This document shows positions 13,203-26,680 of a stretch of 56,349 bases of DNA, one piece after another; the first letter of the stretch is position 1; the number at the start of each line of letters is the position of its first letter. Position numbers and translations under genes: made by a program. Below the pieces are notes generated by a model. It had not been told where the DNA came from and made no database searches. It saw only the letters and a list, made by a program, of their open reading frames with translations. Source of the stretch: a virus. The stretch lies in the UHGV virus genome UHGV-0011358. One strand, given 5' to 3'.

Positions 13203-16200
13203 TTATCCTGAGAATGAACCAGAACCGCGCGACACTATGACTGTCGGCGAATTTATATAAGCCCCCTTGTCATTTTGAGCAGATACCTTAATTTTAACTG
13301 TAACGCCCCTGCTGGTTACTGCTGCTGAATGCATAACAAGGCGCTCCGTGCCATCCAGTGCTAAACCTTTTGATGAACCGCCAATTGTTATTGTGCAACC
13401 ACCAAAACCCTTAACGTTAGCCATAACGCAGATATGTCGGCTATACGCTGCGTCAGATGTGTCATTGTATGTTATTACTTTTTCTAACGCCCCATCCCTT
13501 AACGTGCTAACGTCAGAACCTGTGTACATGTTTGCAACATCACCGATAAAGGTTTTCGCCTCAAGTGAACCGGTAAACTTGCCGCTGTCTGCATGTATTT
13601 CACCCCTTACAACAACGTTGTTAAATTCTGATGCGCCGCTTTGTGTTATCCTCCAACCATTGGAACCGGGGACGAAGTTTGCTGATTTAATTTCATTGAC
13701 AATTTTAGCCATAGTAATGGAGGCATCTGCAATTTTAGCTGTCCCTATTGATGCATCCTTAATAAATGCCTCTTTCACATACATTGCGCCGTTAGTGACA
13801 TAGAAGGGCGATGTATATGCGCCGTTTGCCGCCGTCATTAACATAAAGCGATCAACAAGGAAAATACACTGCGACTGAAAGTTAGTGCCGTCACCAGTAA
13901 GGCCAAGCGACATACCTGTAGCGTATTTTACGCCATTGCTATCTGTGGCGAGCTTGATTGAATATGTCGCATCAACATTACCCCTAAAGTCGGTTAACGC
14001 TTTAGATGTCGTCTCTATTGCCGTCTTGTTCCCGTTAACGGTCACTGTTAGCTGATCAATTTTCGTTGACAACGCCTCGTCTGCCGTAGCCATTGTCTGC
14101 GACCATTCTGTAATACTTGAGTTTACTGATTCGAAAGACGCTGAGATCTGGCTAAATTTTTCCGCGCTTGATTCCTCATGCGTAGAGAGCGCCGTCGACA
14201 CTTCAGATACTTTTGAGTTGATCGTACTGGTAAGCGATGCGCTAAGGCCGCTTATTGCGTCCGCGCGTGCTTTTTTTTCGTCGGCGATGGCTTTGTCCAT
14301 CCTGGTGACGTTGCTTGTCACTTTATTATCAAGCGTGCTGACACTTGCGCTAACTTCGCTGATAGCTTGTCCTCTGGCGCTTGTTTCGTCAGCAATTACC
14401 TGATCAAGACGGTTTACGCTTGCTTCAGTCTTCTTATCAAGATTAGTGATCGATGCGTTTACACCGCTAATGGCTTCAGCCGTTGCTTTTTTCTCTTCAG
14501 CGATAACGTTGTCAATACGGTCAATTTTCGCGTTGGTTTCTCTGATTCCTTTCTTGTATTGGGCTGAAAGAGTAACACGCGTGTTGGTTTGAGCGATTGA
14601 GTTATTGATAAGTGCAATAGATGCGTTTTGCAGGCTTGCTTTTGCCTGATTTATTTCGTCGCTGTTTTTGCCAACATTATTTTCAACAGTGCCAAGATTT
14701 GCGCTGAGGCCTGATATTGCCTGAGCGCGGGCGCTTGATTCATCGGCAATTGCCTGATCAAGACGCTTAACGCTGGCGTTTGTGCTGTTCTCAAGCGTTG
14801 TTAAGTCTGCTTTAACCTCTGTTATTGCGTCGCTTCTTGCCTTCGTTTCGTCTGATATTGCTTTATCAAGGCGGGAAACGCTGGCATCTGTTTTCTTATC
14901 AAGGCTGTCTATTGATGCCTTCACGCCGCTAACGGCCTGTGCGCGGGCACTGGCCTCGTCAGCGATTGCCTGATCCAGGCGTTTAACGCTGGCGTCAGTT
15001 TTCTTATCAAGTGCCGAGATACTTGCGTTAACGTCACTGACCGCCTGTGTGCGGGCGTTCGTTTCATCTGCAATAGCCTGATCAAGCCTATTGACGCTGG
15101 CATCCGTTTTCTTGTCGAGATTGCTTATTGAGGCGTTCACACCGTTAATAGCTTCAGCGCGGGCACTAGCCTCGTCAGCCACTGCGCGTTCCACACTGGA
15201 GATCTGACCTTTAAGGTTGGAATCCATCGTGTTCATTTCTGCCGTGATGGTTTTCAGTGATTCAGCCGTTGCTTTTTTCTCTTCAGCGATAACGTTGTCA
15301 ATACGGTCAATTTCCGCTTTCGTTTCCGTTCTGCCTTTTTTGTACTGGGCGGTAAGGGTAACGCGCGTGTTTGTCTGTGCAAGCGAGTTGTTGATAAGCG
15401 CCAATGACGCGTTTTGCAGGCTTGCTTTTGCTTGCGCCAGTTCGCTGCCAACTTTTTCGCTGGACACTTCTAATAGGTCAATCCTGGACTCATGCTGACC
15501 AATATCATCGGCGTTTTCCTTAACTTTTTTGTAAAGATCTTCCGTTTCTTTTTTAAGTGTATCGGTGTCAGCTTTTATTGTTCCCGTTTCTGTGATCAGG
15601 TTGTCAGTGTCAGTCCTTAAATCTTCAGTTACGTTCGTAAGGTTATCAGTTGTAGTTTTGAGGTTGTCAGTAGCTGTTTTCAGTTCTTCCGCAACACCTT
15701 CGATAACATCGGTGCGGTCGCCTAGATCTTTGATGTCACCAATCATTTCCTTGAACTGTTCCGACCCCATGACATCCTTCATCACGTAGTCACTGATTTC
15801 ATCAAAATTCTCTGTCGGCTTACCTGACGCCTCTACAAAGTCAGACACGCCAAAAGCATTGCGTGTGCGCACGTAAACGTAATAAGTATGGCCCGTGTTC
15901 ATTCCGCCGAACGTCCACTGATAACCACGTCCGGTATATTGTGCATTAGTGGGGACTAATGCCGGATTAGTGATTTGTGTTTCGCCAGCAAAATAGAATT
16001 CATAGCTTGTATCGCTGGTCAGAGTTGTTTTGCTGATTGGGTATACAGTAGCCTGAAATACGCCTGGTATCCAGTTAACACCAATTGGTTTTGAAGGTGC
16101 ACCAATAACGAGATCAACGATAGATTCCGCGCCTTTCATACCGGTATCATTGCGGGCGCGAACGCCTAAAGAGTATTGACCGCAATTCAGGCCATTAAAA

Positions 16201-18215
16201 TCATACCGGAATTCGGTCGTCTCATAACTGGCGACAACTTTGCTGTCTTCGTTATAAACACGTAATTCAAAGGTCAGGCGGTGAGTTGTGGTCTGCGTCA
16301 TCCACGACGCGGAGCACTGAACGGTTTCGGAACCAACATTCATTACCTTGAGGTTTTCAATGTTAGGAACACGGAAATGATTCAGCGTGTCGTTGTTGAT
16401 TTCGAAGACTGCGCCTTCATCAACTACGGCCTGTTTGTTAGGGTCGTGCTGTGCGGCTTCGATAGTGTATACGCTGTTATTTTCTGTTTCTGCTACGCTG
16501 GTGATCCTACATAAAACGGGTTTTGCTGCTTCAGTCGATACAGCAAAAACAGTGCCATTGCGAATCCATGCCGGGGCCGCAGCAAGGGTAATATTGTTTC
16601 CATTAACTCCGGTGATCTGGTGTTTTTTAAATTTACCATCGCTATCAAGTAAGCTGATGGTGTCACCAGCCGCGATATATTCAGAATCAACCTTGTCGAC
16701 CGTTATCACTTTGCCATTGTTCGCCACGATACGACCGCCTAAGCGAGCGCCTGCGCGGTTATTGTCGAGGATCTCGATGATATCCCCTGGTGTAAAGTGA
16801 ATGGCGTCACGGGCCATTTTAAACGTGAATTTTGACGGCTCGCGTTTTGCTGTTTCGATCAGCCATTTACCAGCGCGATAAGCCTGTCCGCGAGACGTGC
16901 ACCCGAACGCCTCTAGCGTGGTTTCGTTGTAGCCGTCGCGGGCGATTAGTTCATCGTCAGAAACGTATTCTTTTGACTGTTCCCAACCGTTACCCGGATC
17001 GGTCCAGGATACAATCACGGCGTTGTAGCACTCCGCGCGGGCAAGGCTCGAACGGGTGAATGCACCATCTACGACATTTGCGTTCGTGATAGTTGCAATC
17101 GGATCTTGTGGCGCATCAATCATCACTGTAAGACGTTGCCCGTCCCATAACGCAATACCACGGAACATGCCAGCAATGTTATCCAGTAGGTCGCGGGCGC
17201 TCATTTGCTCCGTAATGTAAGCGTTAAGCGTCATGCGAGGTTCAAGGCCACCATAGCCATCATCAACCAACTGATCGCAGTATTGGGAGAGCACGTACAA
17301 AGCGCCATCATCAACATCAATGTAACCAGCATGTCGAGCAAGCCCGAAGCGCTCGTTTTTAACCAGATACCGGAAAATCCACGCAGGGTTATTGGTGTAC
17401 GCTTTTTTGAATCCACCAAGCCATAAGCCCGAATATGTGCGCGTTTCTGTGTTGTAGTTATCAGGCACGTCAACAATCAGGCCGCGAAGATGATAGGTGC
17501 GGGTAGGTGTATCAGTGTACTGGTCATGGTCAATCACAGCGCCAGCTACAGCGGTATGAGGATAAGACAGATTATCGTCTATGATTTCGCTGTAACTACT
17601 CCACCGCGTATCATTCTGCAATAGATCGCTGTTGCTGTCTGCTGTTATGCGACGAATGCGAATATCAAACGGTTTTTCATCCGGCGCTTTGATAATGTGA
17701 GCTTCCAGATATTCACCGCTTTGTTTACCGGGGCCAATGTGTATATCTTTAATCAGCGACCATGTAGAAGATGATGACGGTTTAACGTCAACCATCAACA
17801 TAACGGATGTATTGTATTGATTGCCCTTGTCGTCTGACTGAACGAGAGCGTCAACACCAAGATTCAACCTGACGCGGGTAACGTTTGGATCTGAAACAGT
17901 CCTGATTATTGGCGTGTCGTGAGTTACCTTTGCGTTGACAATAACGGTTGACTCGATGGCATTAAAACCATTAATCGGCGATTGGTCAGCCGTGCCGTTT
18001 CGCCAGGCTATACTAATCCCCGGTATTGATGTATTCCCGTTTGCGTCAGTAACAGGCGTGTCATTAAGCATCACGTTATTCAGTGGTGCTTTCTGGTTTA
18101 CCGGACCATATATCGGCCCCTCACTGAGAATATCTAAGACACGATAAAACTGTTTATGATACAGGTTATCGTTCAATAATGTTGGTGTTTTGGCTTTGCC
18201 GCCGCCGCTACTCAT
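13203..18215 (-). CDS. J: central tail fiber / host specificity protein J
   Basis: 1670 aa; N-terminal two thirds align by eye with lambda J; has an added coiled-coil repeat insertion. Confidence 0.9.
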   Translation of the reverse strand: MSSGGGKAKTPTLLNDNLYHKQFYRVLDILSEGPIYGPVNQKAPLNNVMLNDTPVTDANGNTSIPGISIAWRNGTADQSPINGFNAIESTVIVNAKVTHDTPIIRTVSDPNVTRVRLNLGVDALVQSDDKGNQYNTSVMLMVDVKPSSSSTWSLIKDIHIGPGKQSGEYLEAHIIKAPDEKPFDIRIRRITADSNSDLLQNDTRWSSYSEIIDDNLSYPHTAVAGAVIDHDQYTDTPTRTYHLRGLIVDVPDNYNTETRTYSGLWLGGFKKAYTNNPAWIFRYLVKNERFGLARHAGYIDVDDGALYVLSQYCDQLVDDGYGGLEPRMTLNAYITEQMSARDLLDNIAGMFRGIALWDGQRLTVMIDAPQDPIATITNANVVDGAFTRSSLARAECYNAVIVSWTDPGNGWEQSKEYVSDDELIARDGYNETTLEAFGCTSRGQAYRAGKWLIETAKREPSKFTFKMARDAIHFTPGDIIEILDNNRAGARLGGRIVANNGKVITVDKVDSEYIAAGDTISLLDSDGKFKKHQITGVNGNNITLAAAPAWIRNGTVFAVSTEAAKPVLCRITSVAETENNSVYTIEAAQHDPNKQAVVDEGAVFEINNDTLNHFRVPNIENLKVMNVGSETVQCSASWMTQTTTHRLTFELRVYNEDSKVVASYETTEFRYDFNGLNCGQYSLGVRARNDTGMKGAESIVDLVIGAPSKPIGVNWIPGVFQATVYPISKTTLTSDTSYEFYFAGETQITNPALVPTNAQYTGRGYQWTFGGMNTGHTYYVYVRTRNAFGVSDFVEASGKPTENFDEISDYVMKDVMGSEQFKEMIGDIKDLGDRTDVIEGVAEELKTATDNLKTTTDNLTNVTEDLRTDTDNLITETGTIKADTDTLKKETEDLYKKVKENADDIGQHESRIDLLEVSSEKVGSELAQAKASLQNASLALINNSLAQTNTRVTLTAQYKKGRTETKAEIDRIDNVIAEEKKATAESLKTITAEMNTMDSNLKGQISSVERAVADEASARAEAINGVNASISNLDKKTDASVNRLDQAIADETNARTQAVSDVNASISALDKKTDASVKRLDQAIADEASARAQAVSGVKASIDSLDKKTDASVSRLDKAISDETKARSDAITEVKADLTTLENSTNASVKRLDQAIADESSARAQAISGLSANLGTVENNVGKNSDEINQAKASLQNASIALINNSIAQTNTRVTLSAQYKKGIRETNAKIDRIDNVIAEEKKATAEAISGVNASITNLDKKTEASVNRLDQVIADETSARGQAISEVSASVSTLDNKVTSNVTRMDKAIADEKKARADAISGLSASLTSTINSKVSEVSTALSTHEESSAEKFSQISASFESVNSSITEWSQTMATADEALSTKIDQLTVTVNGNKTAIETTSKALTDFRGNVDATYSIKLATDSNGVKYATGMSLGLTGDGTNFQSQCIFLVDRFMLMTAANGAYTSPFYVTNGAMYVKEAFIKDASIGTAKIADASITMAKIVNEIKSANFVPGSNGWRITQSGASEFNNVVVRGEIHADSGKFTGSLEAKTFIGDVANMYTGSDVSTLRDGALEKVITYNDTSDAAYSRHICVMANVKGFGGCTITIGGSSKGLALDGTERLVMHSAAVTSRGVTVKIKVSAQNDKGAYINSPTVIVSRGSGSFSG

Positions 18216-18228
18216 GGCTTTTCTCCTG

Positions 18229-18765
18229 TTAACTTACAACGTCTAAGGCGTCTTTGTTGTTGCTTGTGTCTATGCCTAACGATCCGACGTTTGAACCTAT
18301 TTTCATTTCACCCAACAGGATTGGCACTGGCCTGCCCTGTCCTACCTTGTTTTCAATGCTGGTGTAGGTGTTGTTCGTTATGGTGTTATCTTGTGCGCTT
18401 TCTGCTGATGTTTTTACCTTCATGTTGCGTGACATAAAGATTGAAAACGCAACACCAACAACTGAAACGCCAATCATGATCCAGCCAAGTACACCGATTT
18501 CTAAACCGCCAAGCCCACCCTCTACCACTGGCGCAATAATGACGGTAGTCCCATCCGGGTATTTACTATTAACCGCTGCTGGCGCGGTATTTTCGTCATA
18601 ATCTTTTCCGGCAATTCGTAAGCGCAAAGGGGTGCTTAAAAACGCCTTCTTGAATTCATAATTCTGCGCAACCAATAAGCTAAGCCCCTGCGCTGGTGTT
18701 TCAACGTTTAAACACACCTTGCCGTAATATCTTCGAAGATTGCCCGTAAATCTAAATTTGAGCAT
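18229..18765 (-). CDS. I: tail assembly protein I
   Basis: C-terminal PVPILLGEMKIGSNVGS matches the lambda I motif; position between K and J. Confidence 0.7.
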   Translation of the reverse strand: MLKFRFTGNLRRYYGKVCLNVETPAQGLSLLVAQNYEFKKAFLSTPLRLRIAGKDYDENTAPAAVNSKYPDGTTVIIAPVVEGGLGGLEIGVLGWIMIGVSVVGVAFSIFMSRNMKVKTSAESAQDNTITNNTYTSIENKVGQGRPVPILLGEMKIGSNVGSLGIDTSNNKDALDVVS

Positions 18766-19445
18766 TTGTCAGATCTCCATATTGAATGCGTTTGTCGAAC
18801 ATACGCGGGCCGCATTTGCTCGCGGCGGCTTAACAGTCCGGCATTGTCATGATGCAAAACAGTGTTATCGCCCAGGTAAATCATCGCGTGACATGGGTCA
18901 GCGCCTTTAAACGGCTGACGGATAATTACGTCACCTGGCTGAATACTTTGCGCGTCAACCATGAAAAACCCGTTCAATGGCAGGTTTTTTATGTACAGGT
19001 TTTCCCCACGCAGCCACCACCCATCGTGGCGCTCAAAGTCCGGTAGATCCACGCCGCAAAGGTGATAGGAGTCACGAAAAAGCGAGTAGCAGTCTGTTTT
19101 CCCGTGCTCAAATTTACGACCTAACAGGTGCGCTACCGGGCGGAATTTTCTTACCCTGCCACCGGAACATAAAAACCACGGTAGGCCGGAAATAACCTGC
19201 TGTTGTCGATCCCGTGCTGACAATACCAATGAATCGTCAGTATGGGAGTGAAAAACGGCTGTTATAACGCCTAATTCGTCGGCCTTGATATAATCGTCAG
19301 GCGAGATTTTAAAGCTGTTGTGAGGCGTTTCAGACACGTTTAAACACGGGTAAAAATAATCGTTATCTATCACCAGCCCGCATACTTCCTCGTCAGGGTG
19401 GGCCGCTGCATAGCGAATCATTTTATCTTCAATCGCCATAATCAA
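18708..19445 (-). CDS. K: tail assembly protein K (MPN and NlpC/P60 domains)
   Basis: 245 aa; lambda K-like by eye; gene order L-K-I-J. Confidence 0.8.
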   Translation of the reverse strand: MIMAIEDKMIRYAAAHPDEEVCGLVIDNDYFYPCLNVSETPHNSFKISPDDYIKADELGVITAVFHSHTDDSLVLSARDRQQQVISGLPWFLCSGGRVRKFRPVAHLLGRKFEHGKTDCYSLFRDSYHLCGVDLPDFERHDGWWLRGENLYIKNLPLNGFFMVDAQSIQPGDVIIRQPFKGADPCHAMIYLGDNTVLHHDNAGLLSRREQMRPAYVRQTHSIWRSDKCSNLDLRAIFEDITARCV

Positions 19446-20155
19446 CCCACCTTGCTGGATCCCGGGAAACAGGAAATTGGTAACGGATTAGGACGCGGAA
19501 AACGCAAACGGCAACCGCTTAGGCGGTGGCTGCATTTATCCAGCTTTGGATCACTGGTTGGCTCGTCTTTGTCAGTAGCTACGGGGCCGCCACTGTATCT
19601 GCAACCGTCGCCGCGATATTGCCACTGGCAAACGTCAGCGAGAATTGTGCGCCCAGGGATAACCGCTTTATCTGCATCAATTGGCGTTGACAGTTCATAT
19701 TGCACCTGGTCTGCTGTTTCTTCGCTCATCGCCTCAACGACGTAAAAAGATACAGCCTCAATAGATGGATCTGCATCTGGATTGCCGTTAGGGAAGTTAA
19801 CGGCGTCCAGGTATTTTACTTCCACCTGGCGGCGCGTAACTTTCATTCCTCGCAGGTCGTTGAAATCGTTATTCATCCCCGTAATGAGTCCGCCAATGTT
19901 GGCAACAACCATTTGCGGGCGCGAGTAAACACCTTCGTTTTTCATTTCGAAGCCAGTAGCCTCGATTGGGTAGCTGTTGTAAGTCACTCCCTTCCAGATA
20001 ACCGGGCCGTAATAGCCATTCGCGCCGGAATGGAAGCGGATAACCTCGCCACCCAGGGGCGTTAGGTCTAATTCAAACAAGTCAATTACTGCGCCGACTC
20101 CGGCATCGACGGAATCAATAATCATTTCTGTAGGTATGCTGCGCATTTTTTTCAC
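19442..20155 (-). CDS. L: minor tail protein L
   Basis: Strong by-eye match to lambda L (VEVKYLDAVNFPNGN, Cys-rich C-terminus). Confidence 0.9.
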   Translation of the reverse strand: MKKMRSIPTEMIIDSVDAGVGAVIDLFELDLTPLGGEVIRFHSGANGYYGPVIWKGVTYNSYPIEATGFEMKNEGVYSRPQMVVANIGGLITGMNNDFNDLRGMKVTRRQVEVKYLDAVNFPNGNPDADPSIEAVSFYVVEAMSEETADQVQYELSTPIDADKAVIPGRTILADVCQWQYRGDGCRYSGGPVATDKDEPTSDPKLDKCSHRLSGCRLRFPRPNPLPISCFPGSSKVG

Positions 20156-20275
20156 CTTGTCATTTTGTGATCGCTGTCACGCTAAATCATACCAAAACGG
20201 TTGATAGCGCTTTTTACAATATGTATATTGTACTCAAAAGGAAGCAGGGTTAACAAAATGGCGCGGAGGTGTGAG

Positions 20276-20431
20276 ATGGCTGATAAGGTGTGGAGGTTGA
20301 CGGTATTCCTGTCAGGCGGCAGGGAAATGACTGTAGCTCTGTATAAAGACGAAGGCGAGGCACTAACTGACGCGCTTTTACTTGCTGAAGATGACCGCGT
20401 TTTGGGATACAGGATCGAACCTGCCAAATAG
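20276..20431 (+). CDS. hypothetical small protein (moron island B)
   Basis: 51 aa from ATG 20276 with GGAGGT RBS; opposite strand to tail genes. Confidence 0.35.
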   Translation: MADKVWRLTVFLSGGREMTVALYKDEGEALTDALLLAEDDRVLGYRIEPAK

Positions 20432-20497
20432 GAGGTTAACAAAAAATGAAAAAAATACAGGTTAGACGTGTGGACTGATAAATGCGAATGGGAAAGC

Positions 20498-20797
20498 ATG
20501 GGGCTATTTGACACATTCGAATCAGCGCGTGATGAAGGTTGTGAATTGCTCCGCTGTTGGTCTAGTGCTCGTGATTATTATGTTATTCCGGTACAAGTGC
20601 AGGATAAGGTGGAAGAGATGAACCCGAAAGATATTAACTTTAACGTCAGTGTTGAATTTGCTGACTCTATGGATCAGTCTTGCCCTGGTGAAATACACGC
20701 AAAAGGTTTCCCTGCTGACGATCCAGAAGCAAAACGCGAATACGAAAAAGCTGCGAAAGACTTCTGCATAGATAACCTGGGCGCATTCGATAAATAA
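20498..20797 (+). CDS. hypothetical protein (moron island B)
   Basis: About 100 aa acidic ORF; start uncertain. Confidence 0.4.
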   Translation: MGLFDTFESARDEGCELLRCWSSARDYYVIPVQVQDKVEEMNPKDINFNVSVEFADSMDQSCPGEIHAKGFPADDPEAKREYEKAAKDFCIDNLGAFDK

Positions 20798-20806
20798 GGC
20801 GGCAAC

Positions 20807-21055
20807 ATGGGGAGGCGCAATCACGGCGATTATGTGTACACGTTGAAACAGGCCGCCCGCCTCATCGGTTATCATGAGCACGAATTTATTGATTTGCTGA
20901 TTGAGCGCGGGATACTGTACCAGGTCTGTTTAACGCTGTACCCAAAAGCGAAATACCTACAGGAAAAGTTATTTATCATCATGACGGACGAAAACCAGGT
21001 TAATCATTCATTCGTCACTGATAAGGGCGTTAATTATCTGCGTGATAACTTGTAG
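20807..21055 (+). CDS. hypothetical protein (moron island B)
   Basis: 82 aa ORF. Confidence 0.4.
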   Translation: MGRRNHGDYVYTLKQAARLIGYHEHEFIDLLIERGILYQVCLTLYPKAKYLQEKLFIIMTDENQVNHSFVTDKGVNYLRDNL

Positions 21056-21065
21056 GTGACAGATT

Positions 21066-21182
21066 ATGAAAATAGAAGTTTTGGTGCTAATAATAATGGG
21101 ATTGATAGTATTTGGCGTTCATGCTGTAGAACTGGACTGGAAAACGATAGCGGAAAATATAGCATTAATGGAAATGGAATAA
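21066..21182 (+). CDS. small hydrophobic peptide (moron island B)
   Basis: 38 aa with one predicted TM segment; AGGTGA RBS; terminator follows. Confidence 0.35.
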   Translation: MKIEVLVLIIMGLIVFGVHAVELDWKTIAENIALMEME

Positions 21183-21188
21183 CAATAA

Positions 21189-21213
21189 CCCCGCTTCTCG
21201 CGGGGTTGTGTTT
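21189..21213. terminator. rho-independent terminator
   Basis: CCCCGC-TTCT-CGCGGGG hairpin then T-rich tract. Confidence 0.5.
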
Positions 21214-21409
21214 ATACGCCATCAACCAAAAATAAAACCTCCTTCCCTTCCCGGGATCTACACCCCACGTACCCATCACCAACGTCGTGAAGATACCATA
21301 TATCGCCGTTGTCAGCTTTTACAGTAAGGTCGTTGATCTCATAGTCGTCAAACAATGTAAAAGCGTAAGTTTTGTCAACTACACAAGTCCCGTACATAAC
21401 AACCCCCAT
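21212..21409 (-). CDS. hypothetical small protein downstream of M
   Basis: 65 aa ORF abutting the M stop. Confidence 0.3.
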   Translation of the reverse strand: MGVVMYGTCVVDKTYAFTLFDDYEINDLTVKADNGDIWYLHDVGDGYVGCRSREGKEVLFLVDGV

Positions 21410-21762
21410 TAGCCAACAACTTGTTCAAACGTTGCGTTTAGCGTGTACACAGGCCCGTCTTTGGTCATGCTCCAGCTACGGCAAACGAAAAGCCTTTGCA
21501 CCCCATCCATCGAAGGCGTCCAGTAGAAAGCATCGACAGCGCCGCGCGCCCTCAAAAATGCTTCAGCCTGGATCGCCACGTTTCCACCATCACCACATCC
21601 CGCGCTACTGCCTTTGAAAACCAGGGTATAACTATCAAGCAACGTGTTAATCCCTTTCGCCTGGCGCTGTTCATAACCATCACCAAGTTTAACGACAGAC
21701 ACATTTGGTTCCCTGGTCACGCTGTAGCTTCTTTGCGGCGTCCATCTGAAAACTTCTGGCAT
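21409..21762 (-). CDS. M: minor tail protein M
   Basis: 117 aa; VKLGDGYEQR and C-terminal FEQVV match lambda M by eye. Confidence 0.8.
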   Translation of the reverse strand: MPEVFRWTPQRSYSVTREPNVSVVKLGDGYEQRQAKGINTLLDSYTLVFKGSSAGCGDGGNVAIQAEAFLRARGAVDAFYWTPSMDGVQRLFVCRSWSMTKDGPVYTLNATFEQVVG

Positions 21763-21932
21763 GATTCCCCCTATAAGTTACATATTGCATACATCTTTAC
21801 GCGCTTCTACGCGAAAAATGAGAAATTCATCACAAGAATTATAACCAGTTTACAAAATGGCTTCACATAAGGCGTGACAAGATGTATATAGTAAGCAAGA
21901 AGAAAAAGCAGTACCGACAAAGGGGGGACAAC

Positions 21933-22088
21933 ATGGAACGCTATATGGTTGTGATGCTGAACAAAGCATTCGAACAGGTGGAAGTTGCGATTGTGAAGGG
22001 CTTTGATGATGCATTCAAATACGGTCAATTCATGATGAATGCAAAAGAAGATGAATACCGTGATTTCTTCCTGAAAGTGGTCAGCTAA
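21933..22088 (+). CDS. hypothetical small protein (moron island C)
   Basis: 51 aa; strong G-rich RBS. Confidence 0.4.
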   Translation: MERYMVVMLNKAFEQVEVAIVKGFDDAFKYGQFMMNAKEDEYRDFFLKVVS

Positions 22089-22106
22089 TGGATTGTGGGG
22101 TGTGTT

Positions 22107-22361
22107 ATGAAATTGGTGGCGATTGGTAAAAACCTGAAAGCACAGAAAAACGCACAGGACCGGATCATCAAAAAGGGCAAGGCTTTATTAAATGCTTTCC
22201 TGAAAAAAGAGGCCAACCCCAAAAAATTACGCGATGGCTACGGTTATAAATTTGACATCAACCCCGATTGGCGGTTATTCAGCGAAGATTTAAAGATGTG
22301 GTTAATTATTGACCACCTGGAATATAACAGGCACTGTGGGGTGAAAGGCGCTCACAAGTGA
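22107..22361 (+). CDS. hypothetical protein (moron island C)
   Basis: 84 aa basic ORF. Confidence 0.4.
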   Translation: MKLVAIGKNLKAQKNAQDRIIKKGKALLNAFLKKEANPKKLRDGYGYKFDINPDWRLFSEDLKMWLIIDHLEYNRHCGVKGAHK

Positions 22362-22392
22362 CACGGATTTGAATGTTGCGGAGGAAAACAAA

Positions 22393-22563
22393 ATGAAAAA
22401 TCCGGCAAATAAAAGCAACGTAAAACGCATAGCATGGGTGCTAAAATATATGGATAGTAAAGGGGATACATATACATGCCCATTTTTTAGGTATACTGAC
22501 GCGGTATTTGCCAGAAGTGTACACGGAGGGAAAATTGAAAGAGGATATACAAGATTTGAGTAA
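22393..22563 (+). CDS. hypothetical small protein (moron island C)
   Basis: 56 aa; GGAGGA RBS. Confidence 0.4.
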   Translation: MKNPANKSNVKRIAWVLKYMDSKGDTYTCPFFRYTDAVFARSVHGGKIERGYTRFE

Positions 22564-22601
22564 ATTTATTCACGAAATCAATAACATGATGAAGGTTTAT
22601 A

Positions 22602-22781
22602 ATGATTATTCACGAGACTGAAGAATGTAGAAGGATTGATCTTAGTGTTGAAGATGATGGAAGATTATGGATCGTTAGCGACTGCGAGATGATTGTAATA
22701 GACAAAAAGCAAGCTGACGAACTGATAAGCGCATTACAGCTTTATGCAAACGGCGAATTTAAAAATGATGAAATTGAATAA
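22602..22781 (+). CDS. hypothetical small protein (moron island C)
   Basis: 59 aa ORF not in the track; terminator follows. Confidence 0.35.
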   Translation: MIIHETEECRRIDLSVEDDGRLWIVSDCEMIVIDKKQADELISALQLYANGEFKNDEIE

Positions 22782-22787
22782 AAATAA

Positions 22788-22810
22788 CCCCGGCATTGCG
22801 CCGGGGTTTT
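22788..22810. terminator. bidirectional rho-independent terminator
   Basis: CCCCGGC-ATTGC-GCCGGGG hairpin flanked by T-runs on both strands. Confidence 0.6.
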
Positions 22811-22812
22811 GA

Positions 22813-25800
22813 TTATTTGCGGCGCGGTTGCAGCATTCCGCCCGGTCTGGATGATTCGCGGTGTATCAGGCCCATGCAGATCTTTTCCATATCCTGCTGT
22901 AGTTTTTTGGCGTCCTCATCACTCCATCCATTTTGTGGGTAAACGCTAATCGGTGCGTTTATACTAACGTTACCACCACCCGCACCACCAATGTCGCGAT
23001 TTGGTATTACCCTGCCGTTGTCACCAGGAATCATATACTGTTCACCGTTTCGAGATTGGAAGATCTCTGGCTTACCGTGTTCCCCTACGCGATACAGGCT
23101 ACCACCGTTAACCGCACCGCCGTTATAACGAGCGCCAGCCAGTCCAAGCGTTTTGGCGGCAGCGACGCCAGTAGTAAGCCCAGTAAGTCCAGTGGCCCCA
23201 GCGCCGCCCATCGTGGCAACGTTTGCCAGGTATGCAGGAGTAGCCCACGCTGATGATAACGCTGCCGCCTCTGCCAGTGCTTTGGTTGTTGCCATAGTTC
23301 TTGCTGTATCACCAATCAATTGCTGCTTGACCCACTCAGTACCCATTTGAACAATCGTACCAATCACGGAGGAAAGGATTGTATTGCCAATGTTAGCGAT
23401 CGCCTGTTGCCAATTTTGAGTACCGTTAATCAGGCCGACAAGCGCGTTAGTTGCGGATCCGCTCATTGCATCAACAGCATCGCCTAACAGTTGGTTGGTC
23501 AATGACTGCGCCTTATACCTCTCCCACTGAAGTGATAGCATTTCCCTCTCATGCGCTTTTTCTTGCTCCCTCATATATTGCTCTGTAGCGCCTAAATCTG
23601 TGAGCATCTGCTTGCGAACCGCCCATTCATTCATCGCCTGCTGAATTGGGTCTAGTTGCCCGCGTAGTTGTAGCTCTTTGTTTACCAGATTATCCCAGCT
23701 AGCCTGACGTTTGCGTTGTTCCTCGGTTCCAATTAATTCTTTCCATGCCTTATTATATTGTTCCGCGCTTATTTTGCCGCTTTTTAATGCTGCATTTAGC
23801 GCATCCTGATCCTCTTTTAATTTCCGTTGCGCGGCGGCTTCTACATTGTATTTATCTGCAACATTCTGGCCCCGTTTCTCAAGCTCTTTGCGCAGGCGTT
23901 CAGCCTCTTTTAGATGTTTTTTCTCCTCGCTTTCGCCAGTTTTTTTCCCATGACTGGCCTTTCTTTCAGCTTCGGCGCGTTTCTGCTCGGTGTCGTATGC
24001 TTTGGTCATTGTAGCCATGTATTTTTCATACGCTTCCCCGGTCAGGTTTGCTTTCTCAGCCTCACGCTTAAACCCATCAATCGCCTTTTCCCTGCTGGCT
24101 GTTTTGGAGTCGAGTTTTGCCAGCTCCAGGCGGCGGTTTGCCAGATTCATTAATTCTTGCTGATCTGCGTTAAGTGCTGCTGAAGCGTGTTGCGTTGCTG
24201 CTGCTGCGCGTTCTGCTTCTGTGGTGATTCTTCCGTATGCATCCGCTACCAACCCCAATGAAGTGGCAACGGTCTTCATTAGCGGATCTGTATCCTGCAT
24301 AAGCAGAATATATTTGCGCTGCATTTGATTAAGGCGGTCGAGAATATCCTCACGCTGCGCCTCTTCCCTGGTCAGGCGGGCTGTGATTTCCTGATTAGCT
24401 TTCGATAGGTTGGCGTAAGCGCGTGACCCCTCCTCTGCTTTCTCCAGTGCCTGTTTATTCAGTTCCAGCGCCTGCGTGTCCTGGTCAATCTGTTTGTTGA
24501 GACTGGCAACGTCTTCCTCTAACTGACCCATTGATATTTGTAGTTTATCTGCACCAGCCAGCTTAGCCGCCTTACTCATTCGTTCCAGTGATTCGGTACT
24601 AACGTCCACTGAATCGGCAAGGTTGCGGTTTGCCTCTGCCGTTTGATCTACGTGATCTACATATGCTGTCAACCCGTAAACAGCAAGCATTAACGCGCCA
24701 GGGATACCACCAATCGCACCCAGAGTAGCGCTAAACGCTGTTTTTAGTAGCCCTGCATTAGCCGCCGCCGCAGTGTGGGCCGCAGCAAGGCGCTGCTCTG
24801 CCGCAGTAAGGGCGTTTGATGCCGCTGTGTTCTGTGCTTTGGCTACAGCCAATTCTTTCAGTGTCTGAACTTCGAATTTTGTTCCGGCATTTGCCGCAGC
24901 ATAAGCCTGCGCCTCTCTCAACCTTGCCGCCGCCGCCGCTACTGATTGCCGTGCTGATACCACCTGAGCGTTAGCTAGCGCCAATTCACTCTGAGCGGCC
25001 TGCCGTGCCGCTGCCGTTTGTGCCCTGGTCGCCTGAGCGTTAGTTAATACCTCTGCTGTTGCAGCTACGAATTTATTTACCACTCTGCCACCCATCACAG
25101 TGGCAATGCCAATAAATGCAGTAGCTATTTCGTTAAGGTTTTCTGACAGGGTTACAACTGCCGAATTAAAAGCACCAATCCCGCCCATAATTGACGAATT
25201 GCTGCCGAAAAATTTAGCTGCGTTGTTGCCTGCAACAGTGAAAGCCTCCTGCATAGTTGGGGTGAGTTTAGAAAACTCAGCATCAACCTCCGCTTTCATT
25301 TCCTTAAGGGCTTTAATGATAGCTTCACGGGTGATTTTCCCTTCTGCTGCCATCTTGCGCATTTCCGCTGACGATACGCCCAGTGATTTAGCCAAACCCT
25401 CTGACAGCCTGGTGGCGTTTTCTGTAACGGAGTTAAATTCATCGCCATTCAAAACACCTTTGGCGAGGGATTGACCCAACTGACGGATCCCGCCTTCTGC
25501 TTCAGCGGCAGAAGCGCCAGAAATGCGGAATGTTTTGTTAATGGTTTCAACCATATCACCAAGTGCTTTCGTCGATAAACCAGCGTCGCGCGTCGAGCGC
25601 TCTAATTTACCGTAAAGATCTGCTGTAGCATCAAGATCGCTTCGTGAATTTTGCGCGATCTGAAATACACGCTGATTAACGTCTGCCAGTGATTCACCAG
25701 CACGAACGCTATTGATTAGCCTGTTATTCACCTCCTGCCAGGCGTTTGCATACTCAATGATTTTTTTTGCTGCCATTGCAGCACCCAGGGCACTGGCAAT

Positions 25801-25968: not shown

Positions 25969-26125
25969 GATTTAACCTCATACAAAATGTGATCTATGCC
26001 TCTATTTTATACAAAATGGATTTACTTCAGTGAACACATTTTGTATAAAGAAGCCAAAGGAAAGGGATTGAGCGAATGGATTCAGAAGACCGGATGAACC
26101 GGAGGAAGCAAAAGAGGATAAGAAA

Positions 26126-26215
26126 ATGAAAAACGTAAACTACCACCCCAACGAACATGAGCGCTATGCAGACTTTATTGAAGAAATGCTGAAGGCACTT
26201 AAAAACAAAAAATAA
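26126..26215 (+). CDS. very small ORF (moron island D)
   Basis: 29 aa; preceded by a leader homologous to the one at 12868-12922. Confidence 0.3.
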   Translation: MKNVNYHPNEHERYADFIEEMLKALKNKK

Positions 26216-26346
26216 TTGGGTTGGTTAAATGGACACAATCAAAACGGTTATAGATGTATATATTACAGCATGGTTAGCATTTAATGTGATGGCTGTACTG
26301 GTGCTGGCAATGACAACCGAAGATAAACGTAACTGAGAGGTGTATC

Positions 26347-26649
26347 ATGGAACTGGTAATTTGCTTCATCGGATTTATCGCAACTATGGTTGTGGCTCAG
26401 AAAAAACATCTGAATATGCTCCTGGCATTCTTTGGTGCGCTGATTTGCTGGCCTGCTGTATTGATTTACGCACTGTGCGTTAACAAAAGGATGTTCAAAC
26501 ACTACGTTGATGCAGTGACTTTTGTAAGCATGGAGTTCCCGAACGCAACTGACGTACAGAAAGCACAGGTCGCAACTTACATTTACGATAACGTGTACGA
26601 TATTCACGACTTGGATGAGGCAAGATGCAGATTTGCAGCATACAAATAA
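26347..26649 (+). CDS. small integral membrane protein (moron island D)
   Basis: 100 aa with two hydrophobic helices; opposite strand to tail genes; own terminator. Confidence 0.55.
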   Translation: MELVICFIGFIATMVVAQKKHLNMLLAFFGALICWPAVLIYALCVNKRMFKHYVDAVTFVSMEFPNATDVQKAQVATYIYDNVYDIHDLDEARCRFAAYK

Positions 26650-26657
26650 AGATAAAG

Positions 26658-26680
26658 GCCCGGCTAATCCCGGGCTTTTT
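26658..26680 (+). terminator. rho-independent terminator
   Basis: GCCCGG-loop-CCGGGC hairpin followed by TTTTT. Confidence 0.55.

Follow-up and report, generated by a model that had tools for sequence, protein, structure and literature searches.

The tail operon of virus genome UHGV-0011358 (56,349 nucleotides; this whole stretch of DNA is hereafter called the window) is interrupted, between the genes encoding tail protein M and the tape measure protein (H), by small open reading frames (ORFs) read antisense to both neighbors, which raises the question of whether they are tail genes placed on the other strand or an acquired accessory unit, and of what such a unit would do. The element concerned, designated island C, occupies positions 21763–22812 (1,050 bp). 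An earlier note had described it as a moron island of four plus-strand ORFs of 51–84 aa with good ribosome-binding sites (RBSs), closed by a bidirectional terminator shared with the tape measure gene. The four ORFs were indeed found between M and the tape measure gene, at 21933–22781, with lengths of 51, 84, 56 and 59 aa and a Shine–Dalgarno sequence before each; of the limits proposed for the island (21770–22812), the end was correct, whereas the real start lies 7 nt earlier. As far as genome comparison can tell, island C is a genuine, well-delimited moron cassette with a proposed function, and it is built of a constant orf1–orf2 core followed by swappable cargo.

The window was identified as a complete, circularly permuted genome (56.3 kb) of the mEp021/mEpimmI coliphage group, because its two ends align next to each other on the reference genomes; megablast searches with the island, its surroundings and both window ends gave matches only in this group (mEp515, mEp010, mEp044, mEp013, mEp554, mEp021 and MagusPhagus). 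The group, described in 2025, consists of temperate, Nus factor-dependent, non-lambdoid coliphages with an N-like antiterminator, and its prevalence is reported to equal that of lambdoid phages in one human gut coliphage collection (PMC11893012). Neither antisense tail-operon islands nor the genes of island C are mentioned in that paper and its supplements, and the LF82 prophage transcriptome paper deals with unrelated prophages.

The insertion status of island C was assessed using M as an unbiased probe of IMG/VR, where the group comprised contigs with M at least 84% identical (n = 31) and the nearest outgroup comprised ES18/Oslo-like contigs with M 68–71% identical (n = 49). In the group, orf2 was present in 31/31 contigs and orf1 in 29/31, whereas both were absent from all 49 outgroup contigs, 22 of which had an H–M gap of 3–15 bp. 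In Salmonella phage Oslo the tape measure gene and M are 2 bp apart, and Erwinia phage Midgardsormr38 has a single small co-oriented ORF between them. The G+C content of the island (0.391) was lower than that of M (0.514), the tape measure gene (0.502) and the genome (0.458), and the GC skew changed sign across it. Since the group carries the island, the outgroup modules lack it and its G+C content deviates, island C is extra DNA at the H/M junction, and a single acquisition by the group's ancestor appears to be its origin. The comparative alignment with related tail modules that the earlier note had called for places the whole of 21763–22812 as additional to the outgroup H/M junctions. Among 5,426 complete E. 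coli genomes, the island was found in 35, every time in the chromosome. The insertion is neither recent nor idiosyncratic: the orf1–orf2 core is fixed across the whole mEpimmI group, so that the island density characterizes the group as such.

According to the published definition, a moron is extra DNA relative to related phages, has deviant G+C content and its own promoter and terminator, is expressed from the repressed prophage and benefits the host (PMC3594210). Extra DNA, deviant G+C content and an own terminator were found for island C, and a promoter was found at the consensus level only. The bidirectional terminator named in the earlier note proved to be a hairpin at 22786–22808 that lies 4 nt from the orf4 stop codon and 4 nt from that of the tape measure gene and closes both; the plus strand folds at −20.5 kcal/mol (z-score −2.9 relative to shuffled sequences), the minus strand at −19.2 kcal/mol (z-score −4.4). 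The terminator is conserved, the records of mEp515, mEp010 and mEp554 contain it as an independent ARNold prediction, and the sequence of 22780–22847 is common even to relatives without orf4. At the other end, the leader (21763–21932) is as conserved as coding sequence in the alignment of relatives. Its invariant part contains the direct repeat TACGCG-N4-TACGCG (21798–21813), which has one other exact copy in the window (34774–34789); with up to two mismatches, seven copies were found against 4.9 expected, a count not above chance.

A candidate sigma-70 promoter follows the invariant leader blocks. Across the 56-kb window, the plus strand has exactly three matches to the pattern TTNANN-N15-TGTATANN, at 20201, 21862 and 26021, and all three coincide with the 5′ ends of antisense islands; shuffled sequence gave a mean of 0.79 matches for both strands together. 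The TTCAC and TGTATA elements of the candidate are invariant across the six aligned relatives, and its form is the same as that of the clear promoter TTGATA-N17-TATATT (20201) of the neighboring island. The candidate promoter may be active. Thus, the designation of island C as a moron island was borne out by extra DNA relative to the outgroup, low G+C content, a promoter candidate with a terminator, and antisense genes without similarity to tail proteins (none was found for the island C proteins in the Pfam, PHROG, NCBIfam and PADLOC searches).

Selection on the ORFs was estimated from 10 phage and prophage relatives in the plus-strand frames. The mean dN/dS was 0.059 for orf1, 0.105 for orf2, 0.154 for orf3 and 0.193 for orf4, compared with 0.058 for the tail gene M, and these ratios show, at the level of codon substitutions, that all four island C ORFs are protein-coding and under purifying selection. 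A longer frame of orf1 (68 aa from 21882) is also present in the ORF list; this reading was rejected as not conserved, and the 51-aa start is considered the conserved one because relatives show 1–2 nt indels upstream of it.

The internal structure of the island was determined by BLAST against six phage relatives. A conserved block, 21301–22361, contains M, the leader, orf1 and orf2, and variable modules follow after a breakpoint. The cargo at this junction was a 93-bp ORF in mEp010, mEp013, MagusPhagus and mEp554, and an HNH_3 homing endonuclease in mEp515 and E. coli E21845/O/A. Phage mEp013 also carries a 436-aa gene (locus L005, 4328–5638) with treble-clef zinc fingers (DUF4379, CapR homology) and a T5orf172/GIY-YIG-like nuclease domain, and the same kind of gene in mEp021 is split into ORFs of 158 and 157 aa (locus L002, 4048–4524 and 4909–5382), probably representing a decaying homing endonuclease. 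A PADLOC search of the relatives' cargo gave homing endonucleases and one weak PDC-S57 match, and no defense system. In a set of 59 islands, orf1 and orf2 alone (685 bp) were present in 19, the same pair plus orf3 in 12, the orf1–orf4 layout of the window in 11–12, and other combinations in the rest; orf3 occurred in about 27 and orf4 in about 25 of them. Given these layouts and the breakpoint after orf2, orf1 and orf2 are taken, on comparative grounds, as the constant core, and orf3, orf4 and the homing endonuclease genes of relatives as swappable cargo. The distal part of the island is a recombination and homing hot spot, of which the window has the endonuclease-free version, and the homing endonuclease genes inserted at the junction in relatives account for the mosaic breakpoints.

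The core gene orf2 itself was found in two alleles with 63–65% protein identity, beside which orf1 is 86–92% identical. The DNA match of the window to mEp515 and MagusPhagus stops at about nt 22246 (codon 47), and the amino acid differences start near residue 17 and are densest in the C-terminal half. Since the match breaks off in mid-gene while orf1 stays 86–92% identical, a recombination breakpoint lies inside orf2; in mEp515 it adjoins the insertion of the HNH homing endonuclease, and co-conversion could have been involved.

Only orf2 could be assigned to a named protein family. Its product matches Pfam PF24732 (ParE_like; 45.6 bits versus a gathering cut-off of 24.4, E-value = 7 × 10−12, profile positions 2–67 of 67), and the RefSeq name is "ParE family toxin-like protein"; the PADLOC match was weak (E-value = 0.051). 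An exhaustive HMMER search of 1.84 billion representatives gave only 10 proteins at E < 1 × 10−3, which marks the family as narrow in sequence terms, and the members found in a second search seeded with these 10 proteins were 28–52% identical. The AlphaFold2 model of orf2 based on an alignment of 20 sequences had a pLDDT of 89.7, whereas eight near-identical sequences gave a pLDDT of 55. In Foldseek, YoeB and YafQ were the top matches of this model (probability 0.93–0.95, E-value of about 0.1), and among viral models the best matches came from two jumbo lytic phages, fHe-Yen9-04 and RaK2, whose matching proteins are ParE-like (TM 0.74–0.86, E-value from 2.5 × 10−5 to 9.5 × 10−5). Searches of PDB sequences found no meaningful match for orf2, whether it was used as a single sequence or as a profile. 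The model points to a RelE/ParE-fold protein with a modest resemblance to the RelE, YoeB, YafQ, HigB and ParE toxins. The residues K40, R56, H70 and [YF]73 are invariant in the PF24732 family and occupy what we take to be the positions of the catalytic residues in RelE, YafQ and YoeB (the RNase branch), which serves as a lead only.

The other three ORFs had no Pfam match and nothing significant in PADLOC, and none of the four ORFs had an NCBIfam match. The orf1 and orf4 products match phrog_29810 and phrog_13627 (E-value = 5 × 10−9), respectively, both families of unknown function. Homologues of orf1 shared 74% identity or more with it along most of its length, their named sources were all E. 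coli phages and prophages, and none was found outside the mEpimmI group in the searches; as a profile against the PDB, orf1 gave insignificant matches only (E-value of about 0.07). The orf3 product fitted no family in the Pfam, PHROG, NCBIfam and PADLOC searches, and its matches were confined to the mEpimmI group, and tblastn with orf4 gave group members and one weak Acinetobacter phage match.

Taken together, these data suggest that an ancestor of the mEp021/mEpimmI coliphages received a cassette at the tape measure (H)/M junction. The cassette would be read antisense to the late tail operon from the candidate promoter TTCACA-N17-TATATA and end at the terminator 22786–22808, which would also insulate it from tape-measure transcription, and interchangeable cargo would have been added just 3′ of the orf2 core. 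The orf2 protein would act alone, binding the translation apparatus or mRNA if its action is RelE-like and gyrase if it is ParE-like, and would serve to modulate the host or in competition with other phages; it would not be the toxin of an addiction module that has orf1 as obligate antidote. Gene structure, purifying selection, the insertion, the terminator, the family and fold of orf2 and its independence of orf1 are shown by the sequence comparisons, whereas promoter activity, the timing of expression, the molecular target of orf2 and any benefit to the phage or lysogen are inferred. The model as a whole, an autonomous moron cassette with orf2 as a self-standing effector, is considered somewhat likelier to be right than wrong.

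The role of orf1 is what separates this model from a type II toxin–antitoxin pair, in which a RelE/ParE-type toxin, orf2, would be countered by a short antitoxin of a new kind, orf1, the pair would serve prophage stabilization or abortive infection, and orf3 and orf4 would be unrelated passengers. The family assignment, predicted fold and RefSeq name of orf2 agree with such a pair, and so does the classic layout of acidic orf1 (pI 4.85) placed antitoxin-first, 18 nt upstream of basic, toxin-fold orf2 (pI 9.9), with a shared candidate promoter and terminator and co-occurrence in 56 of the 59 islands; in the Ecol_244 genome, orf1 is intact and orf2 truncated, a loss that a toxin–antitoxin pair tolerates and that is equally tolerable for any accessory gene. 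The remaining three islands, however, lack orf1: the one in E. coli UMNK88, its identical counterpart on an IMG/VR contig and the one on the diverged contig L034. The loss is one clean deletion with the junction AAAGGGGG/ATGTTATG, after which the orf1 RBS precedes orf2, and it is shared by two distinct members with 18/175 nt upstream divergence and different downstream cargo. Their orf2 still encodes 84 aa and retains all family-invariant residues under purifying selection, with seven synonymous and two non-synonymous codon differences. Distant PF24732 genes (28–52% identical) stand in co-oriented small-gene arrays typical of lytic-phage early regions, for example immediately 5′ of a T7-type RNA polymerase gene, beside T7 gp0.4-like and gp1.1-like genes, and on a 101-kb contig, and no orf1 homologue or conserved neighbor was found at the distant loci examined. 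Furthermore, orf1 has no RHH, HTH, Phd, AbrB or other recognizable domain and no relatives beyond the phage group, and it hardly differs between the two orf2 alleles, showing no co-variation with them. In the promoter region, the search for an operator gave a weak 27-nt inverted repeat (70% complementary) and the TACGCG-N4-TACGCG direct repeat, and no palindromic operator overlapping the promoter boxes. As a separate candidate, orf3 or orf4 was considered as the partner of orf2 and was ruled out, each being missing from many orf2-carrying islands. The comparison of genomes shows orf2 to be independent of orf1 in nature, and the self-standing effector is favored because of the orf1-less sublineage, the partnerless distant relatives and the missing antitoxin domain and co-variation of orf1; the toxin–antitoxin pair, which stands as the main rival, is accordingly regarded as rather unlikely.

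It should be noted that several observations weigh against the self-standing effector model. Besides the toxin–antitoxin-like layout and co-occurrence of the two core genes, orf1 is under tighter constraint than any other island gene (dN/dS of 0.059), and the model gives it no role. The promoter boxes of the orf1-less lineage read TTCACT and TATACA, so that its survival could reflect a silent or weak promoter in the lysogen rather than a harmless orf2. The candidate promoter of the window has 9 of 12 consensus matches, and a stricter general consensus scan of 21763–21932 reported no promoter, because the −10 hexamer has no T at position 6. Finally, the orf2 profile gave only short, non-significant local matches to the RelE, YafQ and YoeB sequences (verified beforehand against PDB chains), and for this reason an RNase-like orf2 and a gyrase-poison-like orf2 are not distinguished.

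Two further explanations dispense with an effector. If the unit were mainly regulatory, antisense transcription and the bidirectional terminators of the three islands would keep the late tail operon silent or partitioned in lysogens and be overridden by lytic antitermination, the proteins being secondary. The shared promoter type of the three islands, each closed by a hairpin that also faces the late operon, fits this idea, as do the Nus dependence and N-like antiterminator of the group (PMC11893012) and the coding-like conservation of the leader; nevertheless, purifying selection at the protein level on all four ORFs implies that the proteins are important, tail operons of the lambda and Oslo types function in the absence of such islands, and an Rfam search of the window detected no structured RNA family. 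We regard a mainly regulatory unit as improbable. That the ORFs are ordinary tail-associated genes on the other strand (assembly chaperones or minor virion proteins), which the earlier note had named as the finding that would overturn its reading, is considered very improbable. It would agree with the presence of orf1 and orf2 in essentially every group member and with a constraint on orf1 equal to that on M. However, the genes are antisense, with their own promoter-like site and terminator and low G+C content, they are unrelated to tail proteins, and they are absent from Oslo/ES18-like, Midgardsormr38 and lambda-type modules, the nearest outgroup having homologous H and M; the relatives of orf2 lie in lytic-phage early regions, not in tail modules, and losses of orf1, of orf3 and of orf4 all occur among relatives that appear to be complete.

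A wider interpretation of the self-standing effector is offered tentatively, and we would sooner expect it to fail than to hold. PF24732 may be a phage-specific, antidote-independent branch of RelE/ParE proteins, used as early genes in lytic phages and expressed from morons in temperate ones, whose members would be offensive or competitive effectors, acting for example on ribosome-bound mRNA of the host or a rival phage, by cleavage or sequestration, or on gyrase, by blocking it. In this case, orf1 would be a new modulator or co-effector and not an antitoxin, and the three islands could form a lysogen-expressed regulon within the tail operon.

The coordinates of the island and of its surroundings are given in Table 1.

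Table 1. Positions of the island C features, the neighboring antisense ORFs and the tail genes in the window.
Feature	Positions	Strand	Basis or details
Conserved non-coding leader	21763–21861	plus	Long invariant blocks, 6-relative alignment
Candidate sigma-70 promoter	21862–21890	plus	TTCACA (21862–21867), 17-nt spacer, TATATA (21885–21890); TG before −10
orf1, 51 aa, pI 4.85 (acidic)	21933–22088	plus	ORF list; RBS AAAGGGGGG
orf2, 84 aa, pI 9.9 (basic)	22107–22361	plus	ORF list; RBS GGGGTG
Mosaic junction, empty in the window	22362–22375	no strand	BLAST breakpoints 22361–22376, annotations of relatives, Pfam of cargo
orf3, 56 aa, pI 9.8 (basic)	22393–22563	plus	ORF list; RBS GGAGG
orf4, 59 aa, pI 4.25 (acidic)	22602–22781	plus	ORF list; RBS GAAGG
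Bidirectional intrinsic terminator	22786–22808	both	9-bp G+C-rich stem AACCCCGGC/GCCGGGGTT; U-runs on both strands
Sister island ORF, ~57 aa	20258–20431	plus	
Sister island ORF, 109 aa	20468–20797	plus	
Sister island ORF, 82 aa	20807–21055	plus	
Sister island ORF, 38 aa	21066–21182	plus	Hydrophobic
Third island ORF, 29 aa	26127–26216		
Third island ORF, 35 aa	26229–26336		Hydrophobic
Third island ORF, 100 aa	26347–26649		Hydrophobic N-terminus
Tail gene J	13203–18215	minus	ORF list
Tail gene I	18229–18765	minus	ORF list
Tail gene K	18708–19445	minus	ORF list
Tail gene L	19442–20155	minus	ORF list
Tail gene M, 117 aa	21409–21762	minus	ORF list; left flank, outside the cassette
Tape measure gene (H), 1051 aa	22813–25968	minus	ORF list; right flank, outside the cassette

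Antisense islands are not confined to the H/M junction. The earlier note had counted two islands flanking M and considered this an unusual density; the multiplicity of antisense insertions stands, but there are three of them in the tail module (about 20201–21207, 21763–22812 and about 26021–26675), and small antisense inserts are not a rarity in tail operons of this kind, given the insert between M and L in Oslo/ES18 and gene 15 of HK97. The plus-strand island at 20201–21207 lies between L and the small gene linked to M and has its promoter (TTGATA-N17-TATATT) at 20201–20229. Its 82-aa ORF matches a KilAC antirepressor domain (Pfam ANT, E-value = 7 × 10−7). The island ends in a hairpin terminator at 21187–21207 (−18.6 and −17.4 kcal/mol) and is kept in all relatives. 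The third antisense island (26000–26675), which a hairpin at 26658–26675 closes, is located 5′ of the tape measure gene. Its promoter region is a near-palindrome, TTTATACAAAATG...CATTTTGTATAAA, with overlapping opposed promoter-like sites at 26021 (plus) and 26034 (minus), and since the minus-strand site points into the tape measure gene, this gene may have its own promoter. In phage Oslo, a P22 immI-like Arc/Ant antirepressor module is located just upstream of the tape measure gene (locus L024, 96–1726), and one antisense gene lies between M and L, so that phages beyond the mEpimmI group also have accessory inserts in this type of tail operon.

As for the flanking genes themselves, M is annotated as a minor tail protein in mEp515 and mEp021 and is 31–33% identical to lambda-type M (tblastn), and the tape measure gene is annotated as such in relatives. 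The tape measure protein occurs in the group in two length classes, 1051 aa (the window and mEp515) versus about 779–782 aa (mEp010, mEp554, MagusPhagus and UMNK88), which would predict noticeably different tail lengths. Directly downstream of M, and before the terminator at 21187–21207, lies a co-oriented minus-strand ORF of 65 aa (21212–21409) that is annotated in all relatives (e.g., mEp021_70, 61 aa) and has no Pfam match; it is an extra gene of the tail operon, one that is not known from lambda.

The locus offers a testable target: a bounded insertion with a fixed two-gene core, a swappable end and a toxin-fold gene that seemingly needs no antidote. If orf2 is an active self-standing RelE/ParE-type effector, the known uses of this fold extend beyond toxin–antitoxin pairs; if orf1–orf2 is such a pair, orf1 would be an antitoxin of a new family. 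The finding is incremental in both cases, tail-operon morons, prophage toxin-like genes and homing endonuclease hot spots all being established, and its sole mildly unusual feature appears to be a RelE/ParE-fold gene kept in nature without its presumed partner.

When set beside known systems, the distal part of island C resembles the sites of free-standing phage homing endonuclease genes (HNH, GIY-YIG/T5orf172), which in mEp515, E21845/O/A, mEp013 and mEp021 are placed exactly at the post-orf2 junction; unlike these relatives, the window has the "empty" layout orf1–orf2–orf3–orf4. Within PF24732, which includes ParE-like toxin domain-containing proteins of the jumbo phages RaK2 and fHe-Yen9-04, the "YafQ-like ribonuclease toxin" of K64-1/Muenster and genes of T7-like early regions, orf2 shares the motif K40-L41, R56 and H70-x-x-[YF]-N, and it differs from the distant members in its C-terminal GV(K/R)GxHK tail, its location in a tail-operon cassette of a temperate phage and the group-specific orf1 upstream. 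In common with classical RelE/ParE-type toxins, orf2 is small and basic, has a predicted beta-sheet on an N-terminal helix and follows a small acidic ORF; unlike them, it has no significant sequence similarity to the class, its partner has no antitoxin domain, and it persists without that partner. The orf2 model has a single long helix where the classical toxins presumably have a helical hairpin.

The closest analogues of the cassette as a whole are the lambdoid morons, of which bor and lom of lambda are examples. The founding moron, gene 15 of HK97, is likewise located in the tail operon beside the tape measure gene (Juhala/Hendrix; reviewed in PMC3594210). Like lambdoid morons, it is extra DNA of deviant G+C content with a promoter-like site and a terminator in the late/tail operon of a temperate coliphage. 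Its products, however, are small soluble proteins, as opposed to the membrane and exclusion proteins typical of gp15, Bor and Lom, and, unlike the lambdoid morons, island C comprises several genes, is antisense, is a fixed element across an entire phage group and has an internal mosaic driven in part by homing endonucleases.

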